From a bacterium (GTDB lineage: Bacteria > 4484-113 > JAFGCY01), in the NCBI GenBank assembly GCA_020440605.1, contig JAGRNT010000007.1:55083-119082 (forward strand): a DNA stretch of 64,000 nt, given 5' to 3'. Below, in pieces: positions 28,210 through 64,000 of this stretch. Within the stretch, counting starts at the first letter, position 1; each line of letters opens with the position of its first letter. The notes under the pieces were generated by a model. The model was not told the DNA's origin, did not search any database, and saw nothing but the letters and a program-made list of their open reading frames with translations. The position numbers were made by a program, and so were the translations under genes.

Positions 28210-28242
28210 ATATATTATGTCAGTTTGCAAAATTCAATACTA

Positions 28243-28257
28243 TTGAATCTGGTCAAA
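28243..28257. promoter_or_regulatory. palindrome TTCAATA-C-TATTGAA in same AT-rich region
   Basis: seen directly. Confidence 0.25.
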
Positions 28258-28574
28258 TATGAATAAAAAACACTGCAGAATGCCGCGGCAGCCACATCCA
28301 CAAAGCCAGAAAGGAACTGGAGGCAAGTAACTTCTCTCAATTCGTTCCCTGAATGCAGATTGGAATTAATCTGGATTTGTTGTTTCATGAGGATCCAACC
28401 CAACCATCTCGCAGTCTGATAACGGGTATAAGGAAATTGAGGAGCAATTCGAGGGATTACCGGCAGGACACGCAACTTTTTCCTTCTGACAGGCTTCAAT
28501 TGGATTGATGGTGGGAGACAGGAAGGGCGCAAGCCATTCCCTGGGAAACGGTAAGTGAATCTTGGAGGTTTGGC

Positions 28575-28979
28575 ATGGATCTTTACCTGACCAGGCGACT
28601 GAATGCCGGCTTTGAGGAGACCCTTGAGAAACTGCGGCTGGCTCTGCTTTCCCACGGATTCAGACTGCAGTCCGAAGTAGCCGTCAACGCCGGACAGCGT
28701 GGCCCGCTGGAACTGCCTTACAGGATCCTCGCTGTAAGCAACCCGCAGCTGGAGTTTCCGGGCTCCCTCGGTCCACAGCAGGCCCCATGCCTGCCTATGC
28801 ACATCGTGGTCCAGCGAGACCGGGATGGCAGCGTGGAACTGAGCGCGATGGACCCCGTGAAGGTGATGCTGGCTGCTCTTGGTGATACCCACCGCGAAGA
28901 AGCCCTGCAGACCCGGATGCGCATGCAGAAGCTGCTGGATTCAATGGTTGCCAGCGCGGTTCCGGTTCAGGCTGCGTAG
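28575..28979 (+). CDS. DUF302-domain protein
   Basis: 134 aa; FEETLEKLRLALLSHGF...PYRILAVSNP...LPMHIVV pattern of DUF302. Confidence 0.7.
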   Translation: MDLYLTRRLNAGFEETLEKLRLALLSHGFRLQSEVAVNAGQRGPLELPYRILAVSNPQLEFPGSLGPQQAPCLPMHIVVQRDRDGSVELSAMDPVKVMLAALGDTHREEALQTRMRMQKLLDSMVASAVPVQAA

Positions 28980-44027: not shown

Positions 44028-45818
44028 TCAGTTTCCCCGCAGTTCGGAAGGGAAGCTCAGAATGAACTCAGAACCCTCTCCGGGACTGCTCTTGATGCGC
44101 ACCTCACCGCCGTGGGCAATCATCACGTGCTTGACGATCGCGAGCCCGAGCCCGGTGCCGCCGAGCTGGCGGGAGCGCGCCTTGTCAACGCGGTAGAAGC
44201 GCTCGAAGATCCTGGCGTGGTGTTCCTCGGGAATGCCGAGCCCGTAGTCGCGCACGCTGATGAAGGGGCTGCTGCCCTCCAGACCGACCCGGACCTCCAC
44301 AAGCTGCCGGCTGCCGGCGTACTTGATGGCATTGTCCACGAGGTTGCCGATGGCCAGCAGCAGGTTCTCCTGGTCGCCCATCACGCGGATCGGCTGATCA
44401 GGAAGGCTGAGCCGGATCTCCACCCCCGCTGATTCACTCTTGGCCGAGCAGTTGTCAATGGCCAGACGGGCTGTCGAGGCGAGATCCAGCGGCTCGTCCT
44501 CCCGCTCATGGAAGCCGTGCTCCACGCGCGAGAGTGAGAGCATGTCGTTAACGAGCCCGCTCAGGCGCAGTGACTCATCGAGGATACTGCCCATGAATCG
44601 GTCGCGCACCGCATGCTCCATCTCCGGGTCGCTGATGATGGTCTCCGCCAGGCCGCGGATCGCGGTCACAGGGCTCTTCAGTTCATGGCTGGCATTGGCA
44701 ATGAACTGCGTGCGCATGTGCTCGAATTCATGCGTGCCGGTGATGTCGCGGATGATGCCAACCGCGCCGAGCACGCCTTCCGTGGCATCCCGCCAGGGAG
44801 TGACGATGATGCTGATCCAGCGGTTGCTGCCGGTGCCGACCAGTTCCAGCTCGCGCTGGATGGTGCTGCCGTTGCTGATCGCCGCCGAGAGGGCCTGTAC
44901 CAGTTCAGGCACCGTCAGGCATTCCCAGGCATGTCGCCCGGCGATGGCGTCATACTCCTGGCGGCAGTAGCCGGCAGCAACGCGGTTGACGTGCACGATG
45001 CGTTCCTGGCTGTCAACGGCGATCAGGCCCTCGCTCATGCTGGAAAGGATCGCCTCGAGCTGGCTGCGGTCGCGGGCGATCGTCAGCATCCGCTGGGCCA
45101 GGCTGTCTGACATGCTGTTGAGCATTTCCGCAAGCTGTCCGAGTTCATCATGGGTCATGACTTCCGCCCGCTTGCTGTAGTTGCCGCGGCTGATTCCACG
45201 GGCGACCTCCATCATGCGCGTCACCGGCCGGGTCACGCGGCGCGCGAACAGCAGGCCGAGCGGCAGGCTGACAAGCAGGGTGATCCCCGTACCCATCAGC
45301 ACGCTGAGACGCAGGGCGCTGAGCTGGTTGTCAATGTCACTGAGAGGCAGGGAGGTGCGCACATAGCCGGTCAGGCGACTGCCATCGTGCACCGCCACCG
45401 CGTAGTACATCATCCGCTCATGCACGCTGCGACTGAAGCGCCGGGACATACCGCTGCCGCTGCTGCCCGCGGCAAGCAGTTCGGGGCGGTTGGCATGGTT
45501 CTCCATCTCCGCTGCCGCCATATGCGAATCCGCCAGCACCACACCATCATCACGGATAACCGTGAAGCGCGTGGCAGTGGCCCGGCCGAGATCCTTGAGC
45601 TGGTCATCAAGCGCCGGCAGGGCTGCGCCAGCCTGCAGGCTGTCCTGGGCCATGGCTTCGAGCATCAGGCATTGCTGCTGCAGCGATCGCTCGATGCGCA
45701 GCAGTGAGTCTGCGGAGATCCGGAACTGGATCAGCAGTCCGACGGTCAGGGCGGTGAGCACGATCAGGATCGCGTACACCGAGTACAGCTTCCAGAAGAA
45801 CTGCGTACGCAGGGCCAT
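44028..45818 (-). CDS. phoR: phosphate regulon sensor histidine kinase PhoR
   Basis: TM-HAMP-PAS-HisKA (HELKSP)-HATPase_c; overlaps phoB stop. Confidence 0.85.
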   Translation of the reverse strand: MALRTQFFWKLYSVYAILIVLTALTVGLLIQFRISADSLLRIERSLQQQCLMLEAMAQDSLQAGAALPALDDQLKDLGRATATRFTVIRDDGVVLADSHMAAAEMENHANRPELLAAGSSGSGMSRRFSRSVHERMMYYAVAVHDGSRLTGYVRTSLPLSDIDNQLSALRLSVLMGTGITLLVSLPLGLLFARRVTRPVTRMMEVARGISRGNYSKRAEVMTHDELGQLAEMLNSMSDSLAQRMLTIARDRSQLEAILSSMSEGLIAVDSQERIVHVNRVAAGYCRQEYDAIAGRHAWECLTVPELVQALSAAISNGSTIQRELELVGTGSNRWISIIVTPWRDATEGVLGAVGIIRDITGTHEFEHMRTQFIANASHELKSPVTAIRGLAETIISDPEMEHAVRDRFMGSILDESLRLSGLVNDMLSLSRVEHGFHEREDEPLDLASTARLAIDNCSAKSESAGVEIRLSLPDQPIRVMGDQENLLLAIGNLVDNAIKYAGSRQLVEVRVGLEGSSPFISVRDYGLGIPEEHHARIFERFYRVDKARSRQLGGTGLGLAIVKHVMIAHGGEVRIKSSPGEGSEFILSFPSELRGN

Positions 45819-46510
45819 CAGTCCTCCCGGAAGCGGTATCCCACCCCGCGCACGGTTTCCACGAGCTCACGCTGTTCCCCCAGCTTCTTGCGGATCGACT
45901 TCACGTGCGTGTCAATGTTGCGTTCGATCACGATCCCGCCGCTGTTGCCCGTGAGCGAGAGGATTTCCTCGCGGCTGAAAACGCGGCCCGGACTGCGCAT
46001 TAGCAGGCTCATGATCTGGAACTCGGAGGGAGTGAGTTCCACCAGTTCATCCGCAACGTAGAAGCGGTGGCGCTCAGTATCTATCCGCAAGCCGCCGGCA
46101 TTGATCACGGTGCGGCTGCCGTCCTGGGCCTGGTGCAGGCGGCGCAGGCTGGCCTTGACGCGGGCCACGAGCTCGCGCGGGCTGAAGGGCTTGACGATGT
46201 AGTCGTCCGCACCGATTCCCAGGCCGAGCACTACGTCGGATTCCTCCGAACGCGCGGTGACCATCAGCACGGGAATATGGCGCAGCGAGATATCCGTCTT
46301 CAGGTTCTGGCAGATCTGGATGCCGTCCATGCCGGGCAGCATGATGTCCAGCAATGCCAGATCGGGCTTTTCGCGGCGGATCATGTCGATACCTTCGACA
46401 CCATCACGCGCTTCCAGCACGCGGTAGCCTTCACGGCGCAGGTTGTAGGAAATCACCTCGAGGATGTTGTTCTCATCCTCGACGACGGCGATGCGGTACT
46501 GTCTGCTCAT
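45818..46510 (-). CDS. phoB: phosphate regulon response regulator PhoB (OmpR family)
   Basis: receiver + winged helix (VRGVGYRF); AGGAAA RBS before ATG 46510. Confidence 0.85.
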   Translation of the reverse strand: MSRQYRIAVVEDENNILEVISYNLRREGYRVLEARDGVEGIDMIRREKPDLALLDIMLPGMDGIQICQNLKTDISLRHIPVLMVTARSEESDVVLGLGIGADDYIVKPFSPRELVARVKASLRRLHQAQDGSRTVINAGGLRIDTERHRFYVADELVELTPSEFQIMSLLMRSPGRVFSREEILSLTGNSGGIVIERNIDTHVKSIRKKLGEQRELVETVRGVGYRFRED

Positions 46511-46601
46511 TTCAGTTTCCTGTTGTGATTTGCCGGACAGGTGCCTATGATCCTGTTCGGACACTTTCGGGAAAATATGCAGACGGGGTATAACACCATT
46601 G

Positions 46602-46636
46602 ATTATACACAAGCCTGCCCCGGGGGCGGGGCAGGC
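46602..46636. promoter_or_regulatory. TGTATAAT -10 element (minus) abutted by perfect 10-bp-stem hairpin GCCTGCCCCG-GGG-GCGGGGCAGGC in phoB/HTH divergent region
   Basis: seen directly. Confidence 0.3.
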
Positions 46637-46744
46637 GCATTTCTTTTCGAACGTATCGCGGCTGAAATTCCTGAATACAGCCACTACGGCTAAATCCCGG
46701 TTCACTGCACGCTGGGTCCAGTTCCCTGTGTTTCAACTTAGGCA

Positions 46745-47275
46745 GTGAACATTCGCAGCAACATCTTCGCGGAAGTGATTGAAGAAGCCTGCAGGCAACG
46801 CGGCTGGAATCTATCACAGCTTGCGCGCCACGTGGGGAAGAGTGCCACAACTCTGGCCCGCTGGAAGGAAAGCACGAGTGGGAGCTGCGATGTATATGCG
46901 CTGGCTGAGATCTTCCGACTGGCGGGTCTCAGCATGGATGAAGGATTCAGGCTGCGGGACCATGCTCTCACACATGCGGTTTCTGAAAATGCGCAGCTGC
47001 GCGGTGAACTGGATGACTTGCGAGGCCAGCTTGACCGGCATGAAAGCGTGCTCAACGGCCTGCACAGCGTCTTTGCCCTGCTCGGTGAAGGTTCCGTTCG
47101 TCTCACGGCAGCTTCCGGGAGGAAGGAATCACAAGTGCAGGCTGAGCAGGAAAGCTGTCTGAGTGATGTGCTCTCCAGCCTGGACAGGACCATAGACCAG
47201 ATCGACCGGCTGCCCGGCGAGGATTCCGCAAGGCTGGATGAGGATGAGGACTTCGGCTGGCAACGCCGGGCCTGA
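46745..47275 (+). CDS. XRE-type HTH domain protein with C-terminal coiled coil (paralog of 61603..62040)
   Basis: LSQLARHVGKSATTLARW HTH; LAGLSMDEGFRL block shared with paralog. Confidence 0.6.
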   Translation: MNIRSNIFAEVIEEACRQRGWNLSQLARHVGKSATTLARWKESTSGSCDVYALAEIFRLAGLSMDEGFRLRDHALTHAVSENAQLRGELDDLRGQLDRHESVLNGLHSVFALLGEGSVRLTAASGRKESQVQAEQESCLSDVLSSLDRTIDQIDRLPGEDSARLDEDEDFGWQRRA

Positions 47276-47294
47276 GCCCTGATGGAAAAGCAGG

Positions 47295-48227
47295 ATGCGT
47301 GAAACTGAGACAAACTATGCCTGGCTGGCCAACCTGGCAAAGCTTGCCACGGAACATTTCCATGCCGGAGACTCGGCAGCGCTGGCAGGCGTACTGCGGC
47401 GACTGCGGAGCATGGCCGGCAGCTGCAGCAGCGGCACGAATCTGACGAGCTATGAGACGACCGTCTGCCGCTGCCTGCTGCTCTTTGGCTCTCTGCGACT
47501 CGATGCCGGAGATTTCGCAGGCTGCCGCCAGGCGAGCATCGATGCCTGCCGGATCCTTGACAACAAGCGACTGAGGCTCGAACATGCAGGCGAACAGGCT
47601 CGGCCAGACAGCCTTGCCTGGCTGGCAGTCCTGAAACTGGAGGCTGACATGTCCTGGCTGGCGCTGCCTGAGGATGAGGTCCAGTCTCTGGCAACAACAG
47701 ACATTGCCCAGCGCATGGGGCATGCTCTGCGTGCCCTGGAGATCGGCCTCAGCCGCAACCGCAGCATGAATCCGGAACGAAGGCGAAACATTGAAGTCCA
47801 GCAGCTTGCCTGCCTTTCGTCATTGCAGCGGATTGCCCTGCGCGATGACTGTGCACTGCACGAGCAGCTCCGTGCCGAATACAGATATCAGCTGGAACCG
47901 GTTGCCACTGATGAATCCAATCCCTTCCACTGGGAACTGTTCATCGCCCAGAGCCATCTGCAGGGCAGGCTTGACTCGCCGCAGCATACTCGCCTGGCGA
48001 GGATCAGACGTGAAGCCTATCTTGCATGCTACCCCGAGTTTGTGGACGAGCGGCATTTCGGACGGCTGGCTGCTCTGGAGAAGCGCAGGTTCTTCAGCGA
48101 TGAAGCATCACTGGTACCACTCGGGAGCATCGAGCACGACATGCAGCAGGTCGTCAATGTCAGTGTCGGGCATGAGCGCGGACTGCACCTCGTCCTGGAT
48201 GGCCTCCATCAGGGCCGTAGAATCTGA
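47295..48227 (+). CDS. hypothetical protein
   Basis: 310 aa; no recognisable domains; 3' end overlaps convergent lipoprotein ORF by 120 nt (one of the two ends is likely miscalled). Confidence 0.35.
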   Translation: MRETETNYAWLANLAKLATEHFHAGDSAALAGVLRRLRSMAGSCSSGTNLTSYETTVCRCLLLFGSLRLDAGDFAGCRQASIDACRILDNKRLRLEHAGEQARPDSLAWLAVLKLEADMSWLALPEDEVQSLATTDIAQRMGHALRALEIGLSRNRSMNPERRRNIEVQQLACLSSLQRIALRDDCALHEQLRAEYRYQLEPVATDESNPFHWELFIAQSHLQGRLDSPQHTRLARIRREAYLACYPEFVDERHFGRLAALEKRRFFSDEASLVPLGSIEHDMQQVVNVSVGHERGLHLVLDGLHQGRRI

Positions 48228-48479
48228 GGCGAAGCTGCTGCCGTTGTAGAGATCGCCTAGATCCTCCTGGGTATAGGGCGTCATCAGCACGCCGGCGGGG
48301 CAGGCATCGAAGTTGCAGCTGCTGCAATGGATATCCCAGGCGTTGACGACATCCGCCCGGCTGGTGGCAACCTTCACACTGCGGGGCAGCGCGGATTCGG
48401 GGGAGGGGGCAGCGGATGAACCGCAGCCGACAAATACAAATACGCTGACAATGAAGCAAATCCCAAACAAAACTCGCAT
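48108..48479 (-). CDS. hypothetical lipoprotein
   Basis: signal peptide with lipobox FVGCG; TTAAGA-N16-TATAAT promoter at ~48513-48540 (minus). Confidence 0.5.
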   Translation of the reverse strand: MRVLFGICFIVSVFVFVGCGSSAAPSPESALPRSVKVATSRADVVNAWDIHCSSCNFDACPAGVLMTPYTQEDLGDLYNGSSFASDSTALMEAIQDEVQSALMPDTDIDDLLHVVLDAPEWYQ

Positions 48480-48703
48480 ACAGGCACCTCTATTCAGGGA
48501 GAAAAGTGCCAGATTATACCAGTATTAAGGGTGTTCTTAAATGCGATTTGGCAATTGTACCGGAAGTCGGCGGCAGGACATATTCACATTGTCAATATTC
48601 AATTCGTCGGCCCTGAAATCCGAATGATCCACTTTTGCCGGACAATCTGCAATGATTCAGGGACGATCATGCAGCTTTGTCGAAGGCCAGGGTGTTTCCG
48701 CGC

Positions 48704-49114
48704 TCAGGCGTATGCGGTCTGGCTCATGGGCTTGTCGGTCAGGTTCAGCCTGGTGAGGGCCTCGGCAAGCTTGGTATCGCTGACCGGCTTGACGAGAATC
48801 GAGTTAACACCGGCCTCCATCAAGGGCAATGCCGTGTCCGGCGTGACGGAGGCGCTGATCACGATGATCTTGGTATCTCGGTTGACCGTACGGATCATCC
48901 TGGCGCATTCCAGCCCGTTGCAGACCGGCATCTCATAGTCCAGAATCACGAGTGAGGGCTGGAGCGAATTCACCTGCTCAGCTCCCAGCACGCCGTTGTC
49001 AGCCAGTCCGACGATCCGGATGCCGTGGTACTCCAGCGTCCGGGCGAAGCGGAAGCGGAATACCTTGCTGTCGTCAATTACCACTGCGGTGTGTTCCATC
49101 TCTGCAAGTTCCAA
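48704..49114 (-). CDS. stand-alone CheY-like receiver protein
   Basis: 136 aa; VVIDDS, ILDYEMP, KP motifs; paralog of 62312..62755. Confidence 0.75.
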   Translation of the reverse strand: MELAEMEHTAVVIDDSKVFRFRFARTLEYHGIRIVGLADNGVLGAEQVNSLQPSLVILDYEMPVCNGLECARMIRTVNRDTKIIVISASVTPDTALPLMEAGVNSILVKPVSDTKLAEALTRLNLTDKPMSQTAYA

Positions 49115-59585: not shown

Positions 59586-61031
59586 GTGAGTGAATCGACA
59601 ACCCGGCCCGTGCTGCTGCTGCTCAGGCGTGACCTGCGCCTCGCCGACAATCCGGCCCTGCTGGAGGCTGCGCACAGCGGGCTGCCGGTGCATGCCGTGT
59701 ACGTCTGGCCCGCTGCCGGACAGGCAAGCAGGCCGGGTCAAGTTGCAGCAGCCTGGTATCTGCGGAACTTCACGGCCTTCGCCGCTGAACTGCAGGAAGA
59801 ATGCGGGCTGACAGTGGATCTGCTGCAGGGCAGCCTGGAGGAAGTGTTCCTAAAGCTGCGGACGCAGCATGCCTACGGCGCGGTAATGCTCAACGCCGGA
59901 CATGACCCGCCGGCGCTGGCTGAGGAAGTGGAGCTGCAGCAGGCCTGCCGGGATGCGGATGTGGATTGTCTGATGCTGCCTGCCAATACACTGCTGCCAA
60001 CCGGTGCGGTGCTGAACAAGGATGGCAATAGCTTCCGGGTATTCACACCCTATTACAAGCGCTTCCTCGAACGCTACCGGCACCAGCCGCCGCTGGCGCA
60101 GCCGGGCAGGATGCGGGATGCCGGACTGTCCGGCCAGGGGGATTCAGTTGAGTCGATGCTGCAGGAGATCCCGGAAGCCCATCGTGATGCGGCCTCACAC
60201 TGGGAGCCGGGGGAGCAGGCTGCCCGGGACTGCATGGAGCAGTTCATCGCCAGGCACCTGCGGGAGTATGGCAGCGACCGCCACAGCCTGGAAATCAGCG
60301 GGACATCACGGATCTCGGCCTGGCTGCAGGCCGGCGTGATCAGCACCCGCCAGGTCTGGGAACTGGTGCAGCAGGCCCGTGAGCGGGATCCCGCACTGGC
60401 GGATGGCGCAGCGATCTTCCAGCGCCAGCTGATCTGGCGCGAGTTCGCGATGCAGGTGCTGGATGACAATCCGCAGCTGCCGGACAGACCACTGCAGGAG
60501 AAGTTCGCGGCCTTTCCCTGGCAGGAGGACAAGGCAGCTCTTGCAGCCTGGCAGTCCGGGCAGACGGGCTACCCGGTCGTGGATGCCGCAATGCGCCAGC
60601 TGACCAGCGAGGGCTGGATGCCGGGCAGGGCCCGGATGGTGGTTGCCAGTTTCCTCGTGAAGCACCTGCTGCAGCCCTGGCAGCAGGGCGAGGCCTGGTT
60701 TGCGGACTGGCTGATTGACTACGACCTGTCATGCAACGCCTTCAACTGGCAATGGGTGGCGGGTTGTGGCACGGATGCAGCTCCGTACTTCCGCATCTTC
60801 AACCCGATCCTGCAGGGACGGAAATTCGATGCGGATGGCACATACGTGCGGCAATGGCTGCCCGAACTGGCTGACCTGCCTGACAAGGTGCTGCACAGCC
60901 CCTGGGAGGCCTCACCACTGGAACTGCAGGCGGCGGGCATCAGCCTGGGAAATGACTATCCCCAACCCCTGATCGAGCATGGTCTTGCCAGGAAGCGGGC
61001 CCTGGATGCCCTGAGCAGGATCAGCTCCTGA
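59586..61031 (+). CDS. phr: deoxyribodipyrimidine photolyase / cryptochrome family FAD-binding protein
   Basis: N-terminal alpha/beta domain (LRLADNPAL) and FAD-binding domain (TSRISAWLQAGVIS, WREF, NWQWVAG); GTG start. Confidence 0.85.
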   Translation: MSESTTRPVLLLLRRDLRLADNPALLEAAHSGLPVHAVYVWPAAGQASRPGQVAAAWYLRNFTAFAAELQEECGLTVDLLQGSLEEVFLKLRTQHAYGAVMLNAGHDPPALAEEVELQQACRDADVDCLMLPANTLLPTGAVLNKDGNSFRVFTPYYKRFLERYRHQPPLAQPGRMRDAGLSGQGDSVESMLQEIPEAHRDAASHWEPGEQAARDCMEQFIARHLREYGSDRHSLEISGTSRISAWLQAGVISTRQVWELVQQARERDPALADGAAIFQRQLIWREFAMQVLDDNPQLPDRPLQEKFAAFPWQEDKAALAAWQSGQTGYPVVDAAMRQLTSEGWMPGRARMVVASFLVKHLLQPWQQGEAWFADWLIDYDLSCNAFNWQWVAGCGTDAAPYFRIFNPILQGRKFDADGTYVRQWLPELADLPDKVLHSPWEASPLELQAAGISLGNDYPQPLIEHGLARKRALDALSRISS

Positions 61032-61143
61032 TTGTTTACCTACTGCCTGGTGCATGCCCTGAGGCAATGCACTTCTCATTCAATTATCCTCATGAGAATT
61101 GTGAGATTCCCATGTATAAATTGGTTTTAAGCTAGTTTTTCCT

Positions 61144-61172
61144 TGACAAAATTGTGAGTGCAGCGAATACTG
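61144..61172 (+). promoter_or_regulatory. sigma70-like promoter TTGACA-N17-AATACT
   Basis: perfect -35; -10 ends 6 nt before ATG 61178 (possible leaderless transcript). Confidence 0.4.
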
Positions 61173-61177
61173 CTGCG

Positions 61178-61561
61178 ATGTTTCCCCGATGCCAGAACTG
61201 TGAATCCGTTCTGCGCTGGAGTATGACCCAGGAGAGCCGTAACGATCCGGCCCTGCATAACTACCGGCTCTGTGCCTGTTGCACAGAGCGCCAATGCCGC
61301 CTGTGGGGTGTTGTGCAGCTAACCATCATCGATCTGAGTCGCACATTCTTCCTCAGCCTTCGCAGCACCCCGCGGATTCCAGCTGGAAGCCTTTTGCGGG
61401 CGGAGATAATCGTTCAGCAGCGGCACTGCAATGATGAACTGCCTCCAGGGCTGCAGATAATTGCAGTAACGGTGGAAGAACCCCAGGCCTGCGGAGTTTA
61501 TGCACTGGAGGAACTTGTGCTCCATTCTTGTCCCCTGCCTGGCAGTACCCGTCGCAATTGA
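61178..61561 (+). CDS. hypothetical Cys-rich (Zn-ribbon-like) protein
   Basis: CxxC...CxCCxxxxC near N-terminus; low-GC context; start uncertain (track uses GTG 61154). Confidence 0.35.
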   Translation: MFPRCQNCESVLRWSMTQESRNDPALHNYRLCACCTERQCRLWGVVQLTIIDLSRTFFLSLRSTPRIPAGSLLRAEIIVQQRHCNDELPPGLQIIAVTVEEPQACGVYALEELVLHSCPLPGSTRRN

Positions 61562-61602
61562 TCCCGGAATAGACCTGTCGTGAACAGCATTGTTTCCGGG
61601 AG

Positions 61603-62040
61603 CTACTCAGGTTTGGTCTGCTGGTCATCCCGATCAGACTGCGTAGTTCTGCCCTGATTGATGAATTTGATCACCGTTGACTCAACTGTGTCACCGCTCT
61701 CCATCGCGTACTTGCGGATCCAGTCCAGCAGCAACCGCTTTTCCAGCTCCAGCTCCTCCACATGGGACTTGAGCTGGTGAAAGCTCTTCTGCACATCCTG
61801 CCATTCACGGTCCTCGCGGGTTTGTAGGCCGAACTGCTCATCCATGCTGAAGCCGGCCAGTTCGTGGAGCTTGAGGATCACATCAAAATATGGACGCTTC
61901 ACATTGCCACGCACCAGGTTCCGCATCGGTTCGTAGTTCATGCCTACCATTTCCGCGATCTGCGCGAGACTTAAACCTGATTCGGACTGGAGTTTCTCAA
62001 CACATCTAACAATCGCTGTGTCCAGTTTGGTACGTGTCAT
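61603..62040 (-). CDS. XRE-type HTH domain protein with coiled coil (paralog of 46745..47275)
   Basis: LSLAQIAEMVGMNYEPMRNL HTH; LAGFSMDEQFGL block. Confidence 0.6.
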   Translation of the reverse strand: MTRTKLDTAIVRCVEKLQSESGLSLAQIAEMVGMNYEPMRNLVRGNVKRPYFDVILKLHELAGFSMDEQFGLQTREDREWQDVQKSFHQLKSHVEELELEKRLLLDWIRKYAMESGDTVESTVIKFINQGRTTQSDRDDQQTKPE

Positions 62041-62085
62041 TGAGATATTCTACCAACCTTGAGTCGCAACTGATACCACTGTTGA

Positions 62086-62111
62086 TTGGCAAATTTCAGT
62101 TTAATTGCCAA
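62086..62111. promoter_or_regulatory. inverted repeat TTGGCAA-N12-TTGCCAA in AT-rich divergent region between HTH and receiver genes
   Basis: seen directly; 45 nt upstream of HTH gene start. Confidence 0.35.
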
Positions 62112-62311
62112 CATTCGTGTGTTCAATTATTGCAAAATACAATATTGGAGTGGAAGTCAGCAGTAAATCATGCTAGTTTCCCTTGGAAAACACGTTTTTC
62201 AGCTATCACGGATTGGAAACAGCCACTCCTGAATGAATACCGGATTTTTCGCCAACTGTTTCATTGTTGAATGCCTGATTAGGAAATCGGAAATCAACTG
62301 CTGGAGACTTC

Positions 62312-62755
62312 ATGCGCGCCTTGATCATCGACGACAGTTCAATCTTCCGCAGGAGAATGTCATGCCTGCTGTGCTTTCTTGGCCACAGTGTCTGTGGAAT
62401 GGCTGAAGACGGCGTGATCGGAGCAGAGCTGGTGGGGATGCACCGGCCTGACTTCGTGATCCTCGACAACGAACTTGCCGGAATGCGTGGGGTTGAATGC
62501 GTCAGCCTGATCCGCCTTGCCAATCCCGGAAGCCGGATCATCCTGGTAAGCGGGGGCATCACTCCGGAGGAAGCGCTGGAGCTGTCACGGATGGGAACTG
62601 ATGCCGTGCTGCTCAAGCCGATCAGCGAGGCCAAACTGGCCAATCTGCTGCGCGGCTTCTCTCTGATGGAACAATTCAGTTCTCCCGGGGAAAGCCCGGC
62701 CTTGGTTAGAATTGAGGCTGGAGGCAGCAGTGGAAACAGTGAAACAGATACCTGA
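62312..62755 (+). CDS. stand-alone CheY-like receiver protein (paralog)
   Basis: [17 protein letters not shown] motifs. Confidence 0.75.
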
Positions 62756-64000
62756 TCCGGCCATATTCGAGAAGCTCGGGGTGTTCTACCTCGGAGCCGA
62801 GCGCGAAAGCGTTGCCAGTGGCACGATGCAGCCCGTGCTCTACGACTCACGCGACCTGACCACGCATGCGGTCTGTGTGGGCATGACCGGCAGCGGCAAG
62901 ACGGGGCTCTGCACCTGCCTGCTGGAAGAGGCTGCGCTGGACGGAATCCCGGCGATCGTGATCGACCCCAAGGGTGATCTTGCCAACCTGCTGCTGACCT
63001 TCCCGGACCTGTCCGCCGAGAGCTTCGAGCGCTGGATCGACCCGGGCAGCGCCCAGCGCAAGGGCCAGAGCGTGGCTGAGTTTGCGGCGGCCACCGCCGA
63101 ACTCTGGCGCAGAGGTCTGGCGGGCTGGGGTGAGGACGGCGAGCGGATCGCTGCCCTGCGCCGCGCAGTCGAGATGCGGATCTACACGCCGGGCAGTGAC
63201 AGCGGCCTGCCGCTCTCCGTGCTGAAGTCCTTCAGTGCTCCGCCGGCGGAGATCATCAATGATGGCGACGCCTTCCGTGAACGGATCTCCGGCAGCGTAA
63301 GCGGGCTTCTGACCCTGCTCGGGATCGACGCCGATCCGCTGCGCAGCCGCGAGCACATCCTGCTGGCGAGCATCCTTGACAACGAATGGAAGGCTGGACG
63401 GGACTGCGGCCTGCCTGAGCTGATCCGCCTGATCAGCACGCCGCCCTTCAGCCAGGTGGGCATCCTCGACCTGGAGAGCTTCTATCCCGGCAAGGAGCGC
63501 ATGGAACTGGCGGTCACGCTCAACAACCTGCTGGCCTCGCCGAGCTTCGGGGCCTGGGCGGTCGGTGAGCCGCTCGACGTGCAGTCCCTGCTCTGGTCGC
63601 CGGAGGGCCGGCCGCGGGTTTCAATCCTCTACATCGCACATCTAAGTGAAGCTGAGCGGATGTTCTTCGTGACCCTGCTCCTCAACGAGGTGGTGAGCTG
63701 GGTCCGCCGCCAGACCGGCACCGGCAGCCTGCGCGCGCTGCTCTACATGGATGAGGTGTTCGGCTACCTGCCGCCTGTTGCCAATCCGCCCAGCAAGGCC
63801 CCGATGCTGACCCTGCTCAAGCAGGCCCGGGCCTTCGGCCTGGGACTGGTACTGGCAACGCAGAATCCGGTGGATCTCGACTACAAAGCGCTCTCCAATG
63901 CGGGCACCTGGCTGCTCGGACGCCTGCAGACCGAACGCGACAAGCAGCGCATGATCGACGGGCTGATCGGGGCCCAGGGCGGGAGCGGGCTGGACCGCGA
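62730..64000 (+). CDS. HerA-like / DUF853 (YjgR-type) P-loop NTPase, 3'-partial
   Basis: not in ORF track (no stop in window); GGAGG-N6-GTG start; Walker [16 protein letters not shown], Walker [19 protein letters not shown]; overlaps receiver gene by 26 nt. Confidence 0.65.

Follow-up and report, generated by a model that had tools for sequence, protein, structure and literature searches.

A lineage-restricted gene cassette with an orphan receiver domain beside a conserved HerA-fold ATPase gene in an uncultured bacterial lineage

The HerA ATPases of the FtsK-HerA superfamily (archaeal and Deinococcus HerA-NurA, Sir2-HerA, DUF4297-HerA, TdpAB) share a P-loop domain of a kind that forms hexameric translocases. 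E. coli YjgR (DUF853, PF05872 HerA_C) has its Walker A motif near the N-terminus and lacks a long HAS domain. Among response regulators, CheY, Spo0F and DivK consist of a receiver alone, with the full D-D-D-S/T-K set and no DNA-binding or enzymatic output domain. XRE/Cro-C1-type repressors have an N-terminal HTH, and regulators of the XRE type often go with defence and mobile modules; the cI repressor of phage lambda, when transcribed from PRM, is made from a leaderless mRNA. We analyzed a locus in which proteins resembling these to varying degrees are encoded side by side (Table 1), within a stretch of DNA of 64,000 nt (the window). The original prediction had described it as a low-GC patch holding a candidate novel signalling or defence module, with an REC-HerA operon under an XRE-type regulator that was not known to have been described; no description of a pairing of REC and a HerA-like ATPase was found in the literature searched.

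Table 1. Features of the locus, in positions of the window.
Feature	Position	Strand	Remarks
Sigma-70-type promoter, TTGACA-N17-AATACT	61143..61171	+	-35 block and promoter-to-start geometry kept in L087 and L094
Cys-rich protein gene, 127 aa	61178..61561	+	N-terminal CxxC...Cx4C, putative zinc ribbon
Hairpin, 8-nt perfect arms (TCCCGGAA...TTCCGGGA)	61562..61601		Between the convergent Cys-rich and HTH genes
XRE/Cro-like HTH protein gene, 145 aa	61603..62040	-	HTH at about residues 15-60
Divergent HTH/REC control region, 271 nt	62041..62311		AT-rich, 39% GC; dyad and two TTGGAAA copies
Extended -10-like element TGGTAGAAT	62047..62055	-	6 nt upstream of the HTH ATG
Single-domain CheY-like receiver (REC) gene, 147 aa	62312..62755	+	PF00072, E 5.5e-17
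TAGAAT (62707-62712) and GGAGG (62720-62724)	62707..62724	+	Invariant in three lineages
HerA-fold P-loop ATPase gene, first 423 codons	62730..64000	+	Walker A, Walker B, TQNP; gene runs off the window

The predicted HerA-like P-loop ATPase gene was confirmed, and its Walker-type motifs and QNPVDLD are all present (Walker A at G51-G59, Walker B at Y339-E342, TQNP at residues 377-380). The C-terminus and the genes downstream were taken from a 97%-identical relative (L001) and not from the window's own contig; in this relative the full protein has 812 aa, and in its C-terminal part a beta domain is joined by a long coiled-coil hairpin. The AF2 model has a pLDDT of 82; compared with PDB structures, its fold comes closest to D. 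radiodurans HerA (E 1.6e-10), then to Sir2-HerA and TdpA. The ATPase has the P-loop fold of the HerA ATPases (Foldseek E 1e-10 to 1e-7, TM 0.40-0.54) and shares Walker A and Walker B with them, and TQNP aligns with the HerA QRP region in PDB sequence alignments, but identity is only 12-19% and sequence matches are confined to the stretch from Walker B to the sensor region. In contrast to these proteins, the stretch ahead of Walker A, which starts at residue 51, is too short to hold a full N-terminal HAS barrel, and the ~300 aa of C-terminal beta domain and coiled-coil hairpin have no significant PDB match. It also lacks a nuclease, Sir2 or DUF4297 partner gene and stands alone among variable neighbours.

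Assignment to the YjgR/DUF853 type did not hold. Walker A near the N-terminus, the lack of a long HAS domain and a marginal PF05872 match (25 bits against a cut-off of 22) are common to both proteins, but this match covers 50 of 502 profile positions, a phmmer comparison with the YjgR chain 11kk_A gave E 0.035 in the Walker A region only, and the C-terminal halves are unrelated (812 aa versus 503 aa for the YjgR chain). A family search, in which 7998 of 8000 scored candidates matched, placed the protein elsewhere. Among the matches listed, the best are 63-71% identical and the taxa include Acidobacteriota, Planctomycetota, Steroidobacteraceae, Nitrospira, Bacteroidota and Gemmatimonadales. Family members typically have 790-840 aa, arranged as N-terminal P-loop domain, linker, beta domain and long coiled-coil hairpin, without variation in Walker A, Walker B or TQNP. 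The ATPase is a core-type member of a very large, uncharacterised family of ~810-aa HerA-fold NTPases. This family is conserved across phyla but is not YjgR, and its gene neighbours are variable and of housekeeping type, with none that is fixed.

For comparison of the locus we used L001, a second, diverged genome (L087) and, from a third lineage, the short contigs L093 and L094. Gene order in L087 is that of the window, namely PBP, Dph6-like, photolyase, Cys-rich, HTH, REC and ATPase, with identities to the window of 82, 75, 80, 37, 50, 59 and 94%, respectively. On L093 and L094, which show the part from the Cys-rich gene to the ATPase, these values are 45-48% (Cys-rich), 60-65% (HTH), 64% (REC) and 91% (ATPase). 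The ATPase, at 91-94% against 37-65% for the three small genes, is more conserved than even the neighbouring housekeeping genes. Past it lie a convergent BamB-like propeller gene, malic enzyme, Rrf2 and a multihaem cytochrome, and a convergent beta-propeller gene follows in L087 as in L001. Since the flanking housekeeping genes are conserved along with the REC-ATPase pair in these three related lineages, the pairing reflects shared ancestry and is not independent evidence of functional coupling.

The drop in GC content predicted at 61030-62310 is real: between ~61000 and ~62400 values in 200-nt windows are 0.38-0.55, against 0.62-0.69 on both flanks, and the two intergenic regions of the patch have 0.41 and 0.39. 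Atypical composition extends to the three small genes (GC3 0.59 for the Cys-rich gene, 0.67 for HTH and 0.66 for REC, versus ~0.72-0.85 for other genes of the window), but not to the ATPase, whose GC3 of 0.84 is at the top end of the normal range and places it outside the patch. An island that includes the ATPase finds no support, given this native composition, a degree of conservation that no other gene of the region reaches, and the diverged L087, in which both the layout and the dip (0.33-0.59) recur. Furthermore, a search around the locus for tRNA, integrase, transposase and flanking or att-like repeats found none.

The site between the photolyase and ATPase genes is occupied by three fast-evolving, lower-GC genes, to which we refer as the cassette; they are of regulatory type and were found in one uncultured lineage only. 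The first encodes the Cys-rich protein and has the consensus promoter that had been predicted. A single TTGACA-N17-AATACT match was found where 1.3 are expected from shuffles; its -35 block TTTTCCTTGACA(A/G)AATTGT is kept in two further lineages, and the distance from -10 to start codon is 4-6 nt in all three. With the ATG (61178) 6 nt past the -10, the mRNA would be leaderless. The CxxC...Cx4C pattern, which makes a zinc ribbon the putative fold as had been proposed, is retained in the three lineages at 37-48% overall identity (L087, L093, L094), and the C-terminal domain is conserved as well (RIPAGSLLRAEI, HxC). No matches to this protein were obtained in Pfam, NCBIfam, PADLOC or PHROG. Only four were obtained among 1.84 billion representatives: the query protein itself, two short relatives and a 1368-aa protein aligned on short repeated stretches only. 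By its sequence, the gene is a clade-restricted orphan. The hairpin that follows it is a candidate bidirectional terminator.

The HTH protein resembles XRE/Cro-C1-type repressors in its N-terminal motif and in the divergent AT-rich control region that separates its gene from REC. Profile matches are weak (HTH_26 and HTH_31 at E ~0.01-0.02, under the Pfam gathering thresholds; PHROG transcriptional regulator, E 6e-5), the NCBI name for the ortholog P0122 is 'helix-turn-helix transcriptional regulator', and only three protein clusters were found in 5.8 billion. Unlike cI, the protein has a short coiled-coil-like C-terminal segment (LELEKRLLLDWIRKYA) instead of a peptidase or cI-type dimerisation domain, and there is no prophage context. 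In the extended -10-like element, columns ATTCTACCAA are invariant across all three lineages, which suggests that this mRNA, too, may be leaderless, as for cI from PRM. The control region contains the predicted dyad TTGGCAA-N12-TTGCCAA (62086-62111) and TTGGAAA at 62183 and 62213. However, 28-36% of shuffles of the 271-nt region yield inverted repeats of this kind (7 bp, perfect, spacer of 0-20 nt), and therefore the dyad alone is not beyond chance. Its core ATTGG...CCAAT recurs in L087 only, any operator is putative, and an Rfam search of the region gave no family match. Of the paralogs proposed within the window, that of REC (48704-49114) is clear, with 40% identity (E 5e-28); for HTH the case is weak, the gene at 46745-47275 matching at 27% over 60 aa (E 0.016) and at 18% overall.

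The REC gene encodes the canonical single-domain receiver expected, with D7, D8, D52, S80 and K102-P103 present and conserved, and GGAG lies 5 nt upstream of its ATG. In contrast to CheY, Spo0F and DivK, no chemotaxis, phosphorelay or kinase genes are found near the locus, and the last 24 aa form a lineage-specific read-through tail (orthologs have 123 aa). The 26-nt overlap of the two genes is present, the ATPase starting with GTG at 62730 within REC. In relatives, TAGAAT and GGAGG sit in a non-coding REC-ATPase spacer of 44 nt; we identify GGAGG as the ribosome-binding site of the ATPase, and TAGAAT may be a promoter of its own. The overlap, judged by these alignments, derives from loss of the REC stop codon in the window's lineage, and we rejected it as a conserved coupling device.

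In the reading that we favour, and hold with about even confidence, one uncultured lineage has inherited the locus vertically, as a chromosomal arrangement of old date and not as a mobile defence island, with regulation as follows. The HTH protein would bind the divergent region, autoregulate and set REC transcription, possibly with read-through into the ATPase gene. An unlinked kinase would phosphorylate REC at D52. Since REC has no output domain, it must work through contacts with other proteins; among candidate targets the ATPase, encoded in the same orientation 44-49 nt further downstream, is the most obvious.

It is possible, if less probable, that cassette and ATPase have no functional link, the cassette forming a small regulatory unit for itself or for other targets such as photolyase or distant genes, with the ATPase under its own promoter. 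The paralogous HTH-like/REC pair (46745-49114) stands without any ATPase. None of the cassette genes was found at 84 further loci of the ATPase family, and receiver domains occur near the ATPase at four of these, one of them upstream, which is roughly chance level. The conserved TAGAAT and GGAGG in the spacer, the recent origin of the overlap, and the sharp contrasts between cassette and ATPase in identity (37-59% versus 94% in L087) and GC3 (0.59-0.67 versus 0.84) point the same way. Against such independence, REC and ATPase are on the same strand and tightly spaced in all three lineages (44-49 nt), with no terminator-like site found between them; a receiver without output domain needs a protein partner, for which the ATPase is the nearest candidate; and in a distant lineage (L005) genes for a histidine kinase and a REC protein lie directly upstream of a member of the ATPase family.

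We consider it quite improbable that the cassette goes back to an ancient mobile element or to the immunity region of a prophage, inserted in the common ancestor between photolyase and ATPase and now largely decaying, with a leaderless cI-like repressor and small orphans. Its GC and GC3 below the surrounding genome, its fast-evolving orphans, the cI-like arrangement of the HTH gene and the weak PHROG match would fit, but all three ORFs are intact and conserved at the protein level in three lineages, including the Cys pattern and the D-D-D-S-K set of REC, promoters and SD sequences are conserved, the Cys-rich protein has no PHROG match, and integrase, transposase, att-like repeats and tRNA are lacking.

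Hardly credible is an acquired anti-phage system with the ATPase as immune sensor or motor under REC and an XRE-type repressor, in spite of the low-GC patch with orphan genes, the type of regulator, the role of HerA-fold ATPases as anchors of Sir2-HerA, DUF4297-HerA and TdpAB, the Sir2-HerA and TdpA fold matches and weak, partial PADLOC matches (HerA and mad8, E 1e-11 to 4e-12), as no effector gene (nuclease, Sir2, DUF4297, NurA, TdpB) was found on either side of the ATPase, the composition of the ATPase gene is native, L087 keeps the locus in synteny amid housekeeping genes, and the widespread family gave no match in 50,697 phage records, three distant matches in 72,556 plasmids and two in 2.9 million IMG/VR viral contigs.

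The locus is thus best read as a lineage-restricted cassette, comprising a Zn-ribbon gene, an XRE-like regulator and an orphan CheY-like REC, that was recruited beside a conserved chromosomal motor, of which control by REC is plausible but unproven.

The four genes that follow the photolyase gene at the end of the window are listed in the table. The GC content is 0.38-0.55 at approximately 61000-62400, against 0.62-0.69 in the flanks (200-nt windows), and GC3 is 0.59, 0.67 and 0.66 in the Cys, HTH and REC genes, respectively, compared to 0.84 in the ATPase gene and approximately 0.72-0.85 in ordinary genes of the window. The GC drop that had originally been predicted across this locus is therefore real, and the three small genes are indeed atypical, but the ATPase gene is not: as its GC3 is native, the compositional anomaly (61030-62755) ends with the REC gene and leaves out the ATPase. 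No tRNA and no flanking direct or inverted repeats were found at the locus, and an integrase is absent from its ORFs.

Features of the cassette next to the ATPase gene, of a second low-GC cassette (Locus 1) and of a hybrid kinase region, in window coordinates
Feature	Position	Strand	Remarks
Photolyase gene	59586-61031		four genes come after it
Cys-rich ORF, 127 aa	61178-61561	+	
Hairpin	61562-61601		perfect 8-nt arms; between the convergent Cys and HTH genes
HTH ORF, 145 aa	61603-62040	-	convergent with Cys gene
HTH/REC intergenic region	62041-62311		271 nt, 39% GC
REC ORF, 147 aa	62312-62755	+	GGAG 5 nt 5' of ATG
ATPase gene	62730 to past window end	+	GTG start; GGAGG at 62720-62724
Locus 1, HTH-like gene, 176 aa	46745-47275	+	
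Locus 1, orphan gene, 310 aa	47295-48227	+	no Pfam
Locus 1, lipoprotein-like gene, 123 aa	48108-48479	-	
Locus 1, single-domain REC gene	48704-49114	-	40% identical to REC of the ATPase-adjoining cassette
Hybrid histidine kinase, 2094 aa	21884-28165	-	many PAS, C-terminal REC
Orphan ORF	28215-28892	-	GC 0.52; no Pfam match; adjoins hybrid kinase gene

The REC protein matches PF00072 with 62.4 bits (cut-off 30.2). Residues D7, D8, D52, S80 and K102-P103 align with D12, D13, D57, T87 and K109 of CheY (alignment A3), and by these sequence features REC is a bona fide receiver. It lacks an output domain. There is no kinase gene inside the locus; elsewhere in the window a PhoR-like kinase (44028-45818) and the PAS hybrid kinase are encoded. 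Both REC and the HTH protein had been described as having a paralog in the window. For REC the paralog is convincing (E 5e-28), but the HTH-like protein shares little beyond a LAGxSMDExFxL motif with the HTH protein. Both candidates belong to Locus 1 (46745-49114), which has neither an ATPase nor a kinase within the cassette and lies just downstream of PhoB/PhoR-like genes (44028-46705).

The HTH protein scores below threshold against HTH_26 (16 bits, cut-off 22) and HTH_31 (15.5 bits, cut-off 27). Its single PHROG match is a transcriptional regulator (E 6e-5), its ortholog P0122 is named HTH transcriptional regulator by NCBI, and PADLOC gives a marginal match to a CARF domain (E 0.016). The first 60 residues fit the expected HTH pattern, and the C-terminus resembles a short coiled coil (alignment A4). 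Relatives are rare, as 5.8 billion protein clusters contain three: the protein itself and two others, at 50% and 65% identity. The Cys protein has no profile match in Pfam, NCBIfam, PADLOC or PHROG, and a search of 1.84 billion representatives returned, apart from the protein itself, two relatives that are short and one protein of 1368 aa that aligns over short repeated stretches only. Its CxxC (residues 5-8) and Cx4C (33-38) motifs, a putative zinc ribbon, are kept in three lineages, and a C-terminal RIPAGSLLRAEI block is conserved as well. Across the same four databases, the four proteins and the C-terminal half of the ATPase yielded no specific family, only REC and generic HerA/DUF87.

The promoter TTGACA-N17-AATACT named in the original prediction is present at 61143-61171, with the ATG of the Cys gene 6 nt further on; the pattern was found once, where 1.3 matches are expected from shuffling. 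Two diverged lineages keep the block TTTTCCTTGACA(A/G)AATTGT and, as in the window, have the start codon 4-6 nt past a -10-like hexamer; the residues directly after the start, including the CxxC, are conserved at the protein level. Because of the conservation of promoter block, start spacing and N-terminal residues, it is reasonable to infer that the Cys-gene mRNA is leaderless. The HTH gene has the same promoter-to-start geometry: 6 nt 5' of its ATG is TGGTAGAAT (reverse complement of 62047-62055), which is invariant in all three lineages (alignment A1). The cassette offers two well-conserved candidate leaderless promoters from an uncultured lineage.

A 22-nt direct repeat (73% identical; 61084-61105 and 61137-61158) has AATTGTGAG common to both copies, the second of which is located in the spacer of the Cys promoter, the position expected of an operator. 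The 146-nt stretch between the photolyase and Cys genes contains four copies of AATTG, where chance would give 0.8 (P ~0.02, post hoc); this count and that of TTGGAAA are post hoc and marginal, and carry no multiple-testing correction. The predicted dyad is found at 62086-62111, but it is not significant against shuffles, since a perfect 7-bp inverted repeat with arms 0-20 nt apart arises in 28-36% of shuffles of the 271-nt region. Its core ATTGG...CCAAT is the sole part that recurs, in one relative only. An Rfam search of 60900-62900 at E up to 1 gave a spurious lncRNA match only, and thus no riboswitch in the 271-nt leader region.

All motifs originally quoted for the ATPase are present. Walker A (GMTGSGKTG) is found at residues 51-59 and Walker B (LLYMDE) at 337-342, with G51-G59 and Y339-E342 invariant across 40 homologs, and PF01935 (DUF87) is matched over its cut-off (E 3e-7). 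The 423 residues encoded in the window gave an AF2 model (pLDDT 82) whose best Foldseek match is D. radiodurans HerA (E 1.6e-10, TM 0.52), followed by Sir2-HerA, Sulfolobus HerA and TdpA (12-19% identity). By the Walker motifs and the modeled HerA-like RecA/ASCE fold, the protein is a P-loop ATPase of the FtsK-HerA superfamily. Profile matches cover two regions only, that of Walker A (DUF87, HerA_C, TrwB) and that from Walker B to the sensor.

The ATPase differs from canonical HerA, in which the aligned Walker A motif lies more than 140 residues into the PDB chains. Here it begins at residue 51, and the approximately 50 residues that precede it are modeled as three short strands (pLDDT 49-68), so that the full N-terminal HAS barrel of HerA-NurA cannot be accommodated. 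Whereas HerA-NurA has nurA or mre11/rad50 as neighbors, neither is found beside the ATPase, which has REC on its 5' side and a convergent propeller gene on its 3' side; the arrangement in L087, a diverged second genome, is alike. The assignment to the YjgR/DUF853 type does not hold, as PF05872 (HerA_C/DUF853) is matched at profile positions 15-64 of 502 only and the YjgR chain 11kk_A over residues 45-87 only, with a negligible E of 0.035; a YjgR ortholog is thereby ruled out. Literature searches for YjgR, DUF853/DUF87, HerA with response regulator, and the accession numbers yielded nothing relevant.

The remainder of the ATPase was read on a relative contig, JAWLAZ010000001.1 (1.88 Mb), identified by an exact-match scan (24 mismatches in 757 nt, 97% identity). 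The gene ends 1168 nt past the window edge and encodes 812 aa. On this relative it is followed by a convergent gene for a BamB/PQQ-like beta-propeller and then by genes for malic enzyme, an Rrf2 regulator and a multihaem cytochrome. Extending the contig, as originally proposed, thus supplied the full ATPase but no downstream partner, as read on the 97%-identical relative rather than on the window's own contig. The C-terminal half is less conserved (33-36% in few matches), and its 305 aa used as a query retrieved 19 unannotated fragments. In the model of a homolog (P0131) it consists of a beta domain and an antiparallel hairpin with helices of approximately 55-70 residues each. The tip loop of this hairpin carries a conserved Gly-rich hydrophobic motif, SVGGxLLGxxFGG, flanked by basic residues, and could, judged from the model, be a membrane- or partner-binding element. 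A fold search with the C-terminal domain gave no significant PDB neighbor, the best being generic coiled-coil hairpins (E 0.016 or weaker).

The ATPase is a member of a very large, uncharacterised HerA-fold family without a curated family model. Nearly all scored candidates matched (7998/8000), and 534 of 600 stretches in a metagenome scan encode a relative; the typical length is 790-840 aa. Identity is 63-71% among the best matches listed, across phyla; the listed hosts include Acidobacteriota, Planctomycetota, Gammaproteobacteria, Nitrospira, Bacteroidota, Gemmatimonadales and others. The 94%-identical ATPase of L087 is not among the matches listed for the ATPase fragment, which reach 71%, although the HTH protein of the window is in the same collection; the gap probably reflects the limit of 8000 candidates rather than biology. 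Of 50,697 phage records none gave a match to the ATPase; 72,556 plasmids gave three, all distant, and 2.9 million IMG/VR contigs gave two. Elsewhere the family is found beside unrelated housekeeping genes, which by sequence reading are FabD/PlsX-like, ABC ATPase, YbaK-like and glyoxalase genes. The only recurrent neighbor encodes a small DUF2780 (VcgC/VcgE) protein, immediately upstream or downstream in 11 of 84 metagenome loci (L011, L018, L029, L041, L046, L052, L055, L066, L067, L072 and L075); this gene is absent from the window. This conserved and apparently unstudied family, with no recognisable partner genes, is the more notable by-product of the analysis.

Syntenic loci were reached via the HTH relatives. 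In L087 (JAGRNR010000003.1) the order PBP, Dph6-like, photolyase, Cys, HTH continues with the genes for REC (123 aa) and the ATPase (813 aa), which are divergent to the HTH gene, and a convergent beta-propeller gene comes after the ATPase. The order in the window is the same except for one gene, glyoxalase in the window and DUF1003 in L087, and a low-GC dip (0.33-0.59) is present there too. The cassette is therefore no recent insertion. Identities of L087 to the window are 82% (PBP), 75% (Dph6-like), 80% (photolyase), 37% (Cys), 50% (HTH), 59% (REC) and 94% (ATPase); in a third lineage, known from two short contigs (L093 and L094), they are 45-48% (Cys), 60-65% (HTH), 64% (REC) and 91% (ATPase). 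By these values the ATPase is the most constrained gene of the neighborhood, and the three small cassette genes are fast-evolving yet intact. Beyond the ATPase and beta-propeller genes, L087 (1-4870) encodes a glycosyltransferase, a phytoene-desaturase-like oxidase and a Caroten_synth protein (PF04240), all of the carotenoid pathway, which, together with the photolyase gene at the opposite end, places its locus amid light/UV-related genes. The 97% relative of the window lacks carotenoid genes at this place and has malic enzyme instead.

The original prediction took the locus for a candidate signaling/defence module or island. PADLOC matches of the ATPase to HerA and mad8 are partial (E 4e-12 or weaker), and the other three proteins match no defence-system effector in PADLOC. 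Membership in Sir2-HerA, DUF4297-HerA, TdpAB or MADS would require HerA and effector in one operon and strong matches to the profiles of the system, but in this locus no effector ORF (of Sir2, DUF4297 nuclease or TdpB type) adjoins the ATPase; a HerA-type anti-phage system is not supported on these grounds. Against a genomic or defence island speak the lack of mobility marks, the same site of the cassette in L087 and the native composition of the ATPase. The lack of an island signature had itself been named as grounds for abandoning the island, and as far as the ATPase is concerned this is what was found. Both readings are not supported, because the ATPase is conserved, native in composition, without an effector and not mobile. 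The locus can be set aside as a defence candidate and ought not to be listed among HerA-type immune systems.

The observations made originally on this locus were themselves confirmed, and we consider the cassette most likely a lineage-restricted regulatory unit beside the ATPase gene. The HTH protein would act on the divergent AT-rich region, and REC would be phosphorylated by an unlinked kinase and signal via protein contact, with the adjoining ATPase as its prime, unproven, candidate target. This signaling reading is possible. Its strongest rival is that cassette and ATPase may be unconnected. In favor of this rival are the paralogous Locus 1, which has no ATPase, the contrast in evolutionary rates between cassette and ATPase, and the chance level of the REC-ATPase association. 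None of the 84 other ATPase loci contains the Cys, HTH or REC genes of the cassette, and receivers (REC HMM against six-frame ORFs) lie near the ATPase relative in four of them: upstream in one (L005), two genes off in L009, and downstream as REC-PAS in L035 and L045. This is about the frequency predicted by the abundance of two-component genes. L005 (1465-5474), from a distant lineage, is still of note: in its frameshift-prone assembly a series of HisKA, HATPase_c, REC, HisKA and HATPase_c segments passes directly into the ATPase ORF, the one other juxtaposition of two-component and ATPase genes found directly upstream of a family member. A possible internal promoter for the ATPase also favors the rival. 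In the relatives, REC ends at a TGA followed by a 44-nt spacer before the ATPase (junction alignment A6); in the window (62680-62755) a 1-nt difference abolishes this stop, resulting in a 24-aa tail and the 26-nt overlap with the ATPase gene. TAGAAT and GGAGG blocks are invariant in the spacer, and the ATPase may therefore carry its own promoter.

The locus combines known parts in a new way within a single uncultured clade and is of modest interest. The regulatory reading has a stronger form, which we regard as unlikely: that a phosphorylatable CheY-like REC has been recruited in this lineage as a direct allosteric switch of a HerA-fold motor, whose very widespread family comprises at least 8000 sequences and is marked by a unique coiled-coil hairpin, hydrophobic at its tip, in the C-terminal part. 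If true, this would make the locus the first regulatory handle on the role of this conserved motor and an experimental entry to it. Should REC control the motor, the orphan receiver and XRE-like regulator directly before it would provide a clue to the biology of the ATPase family.
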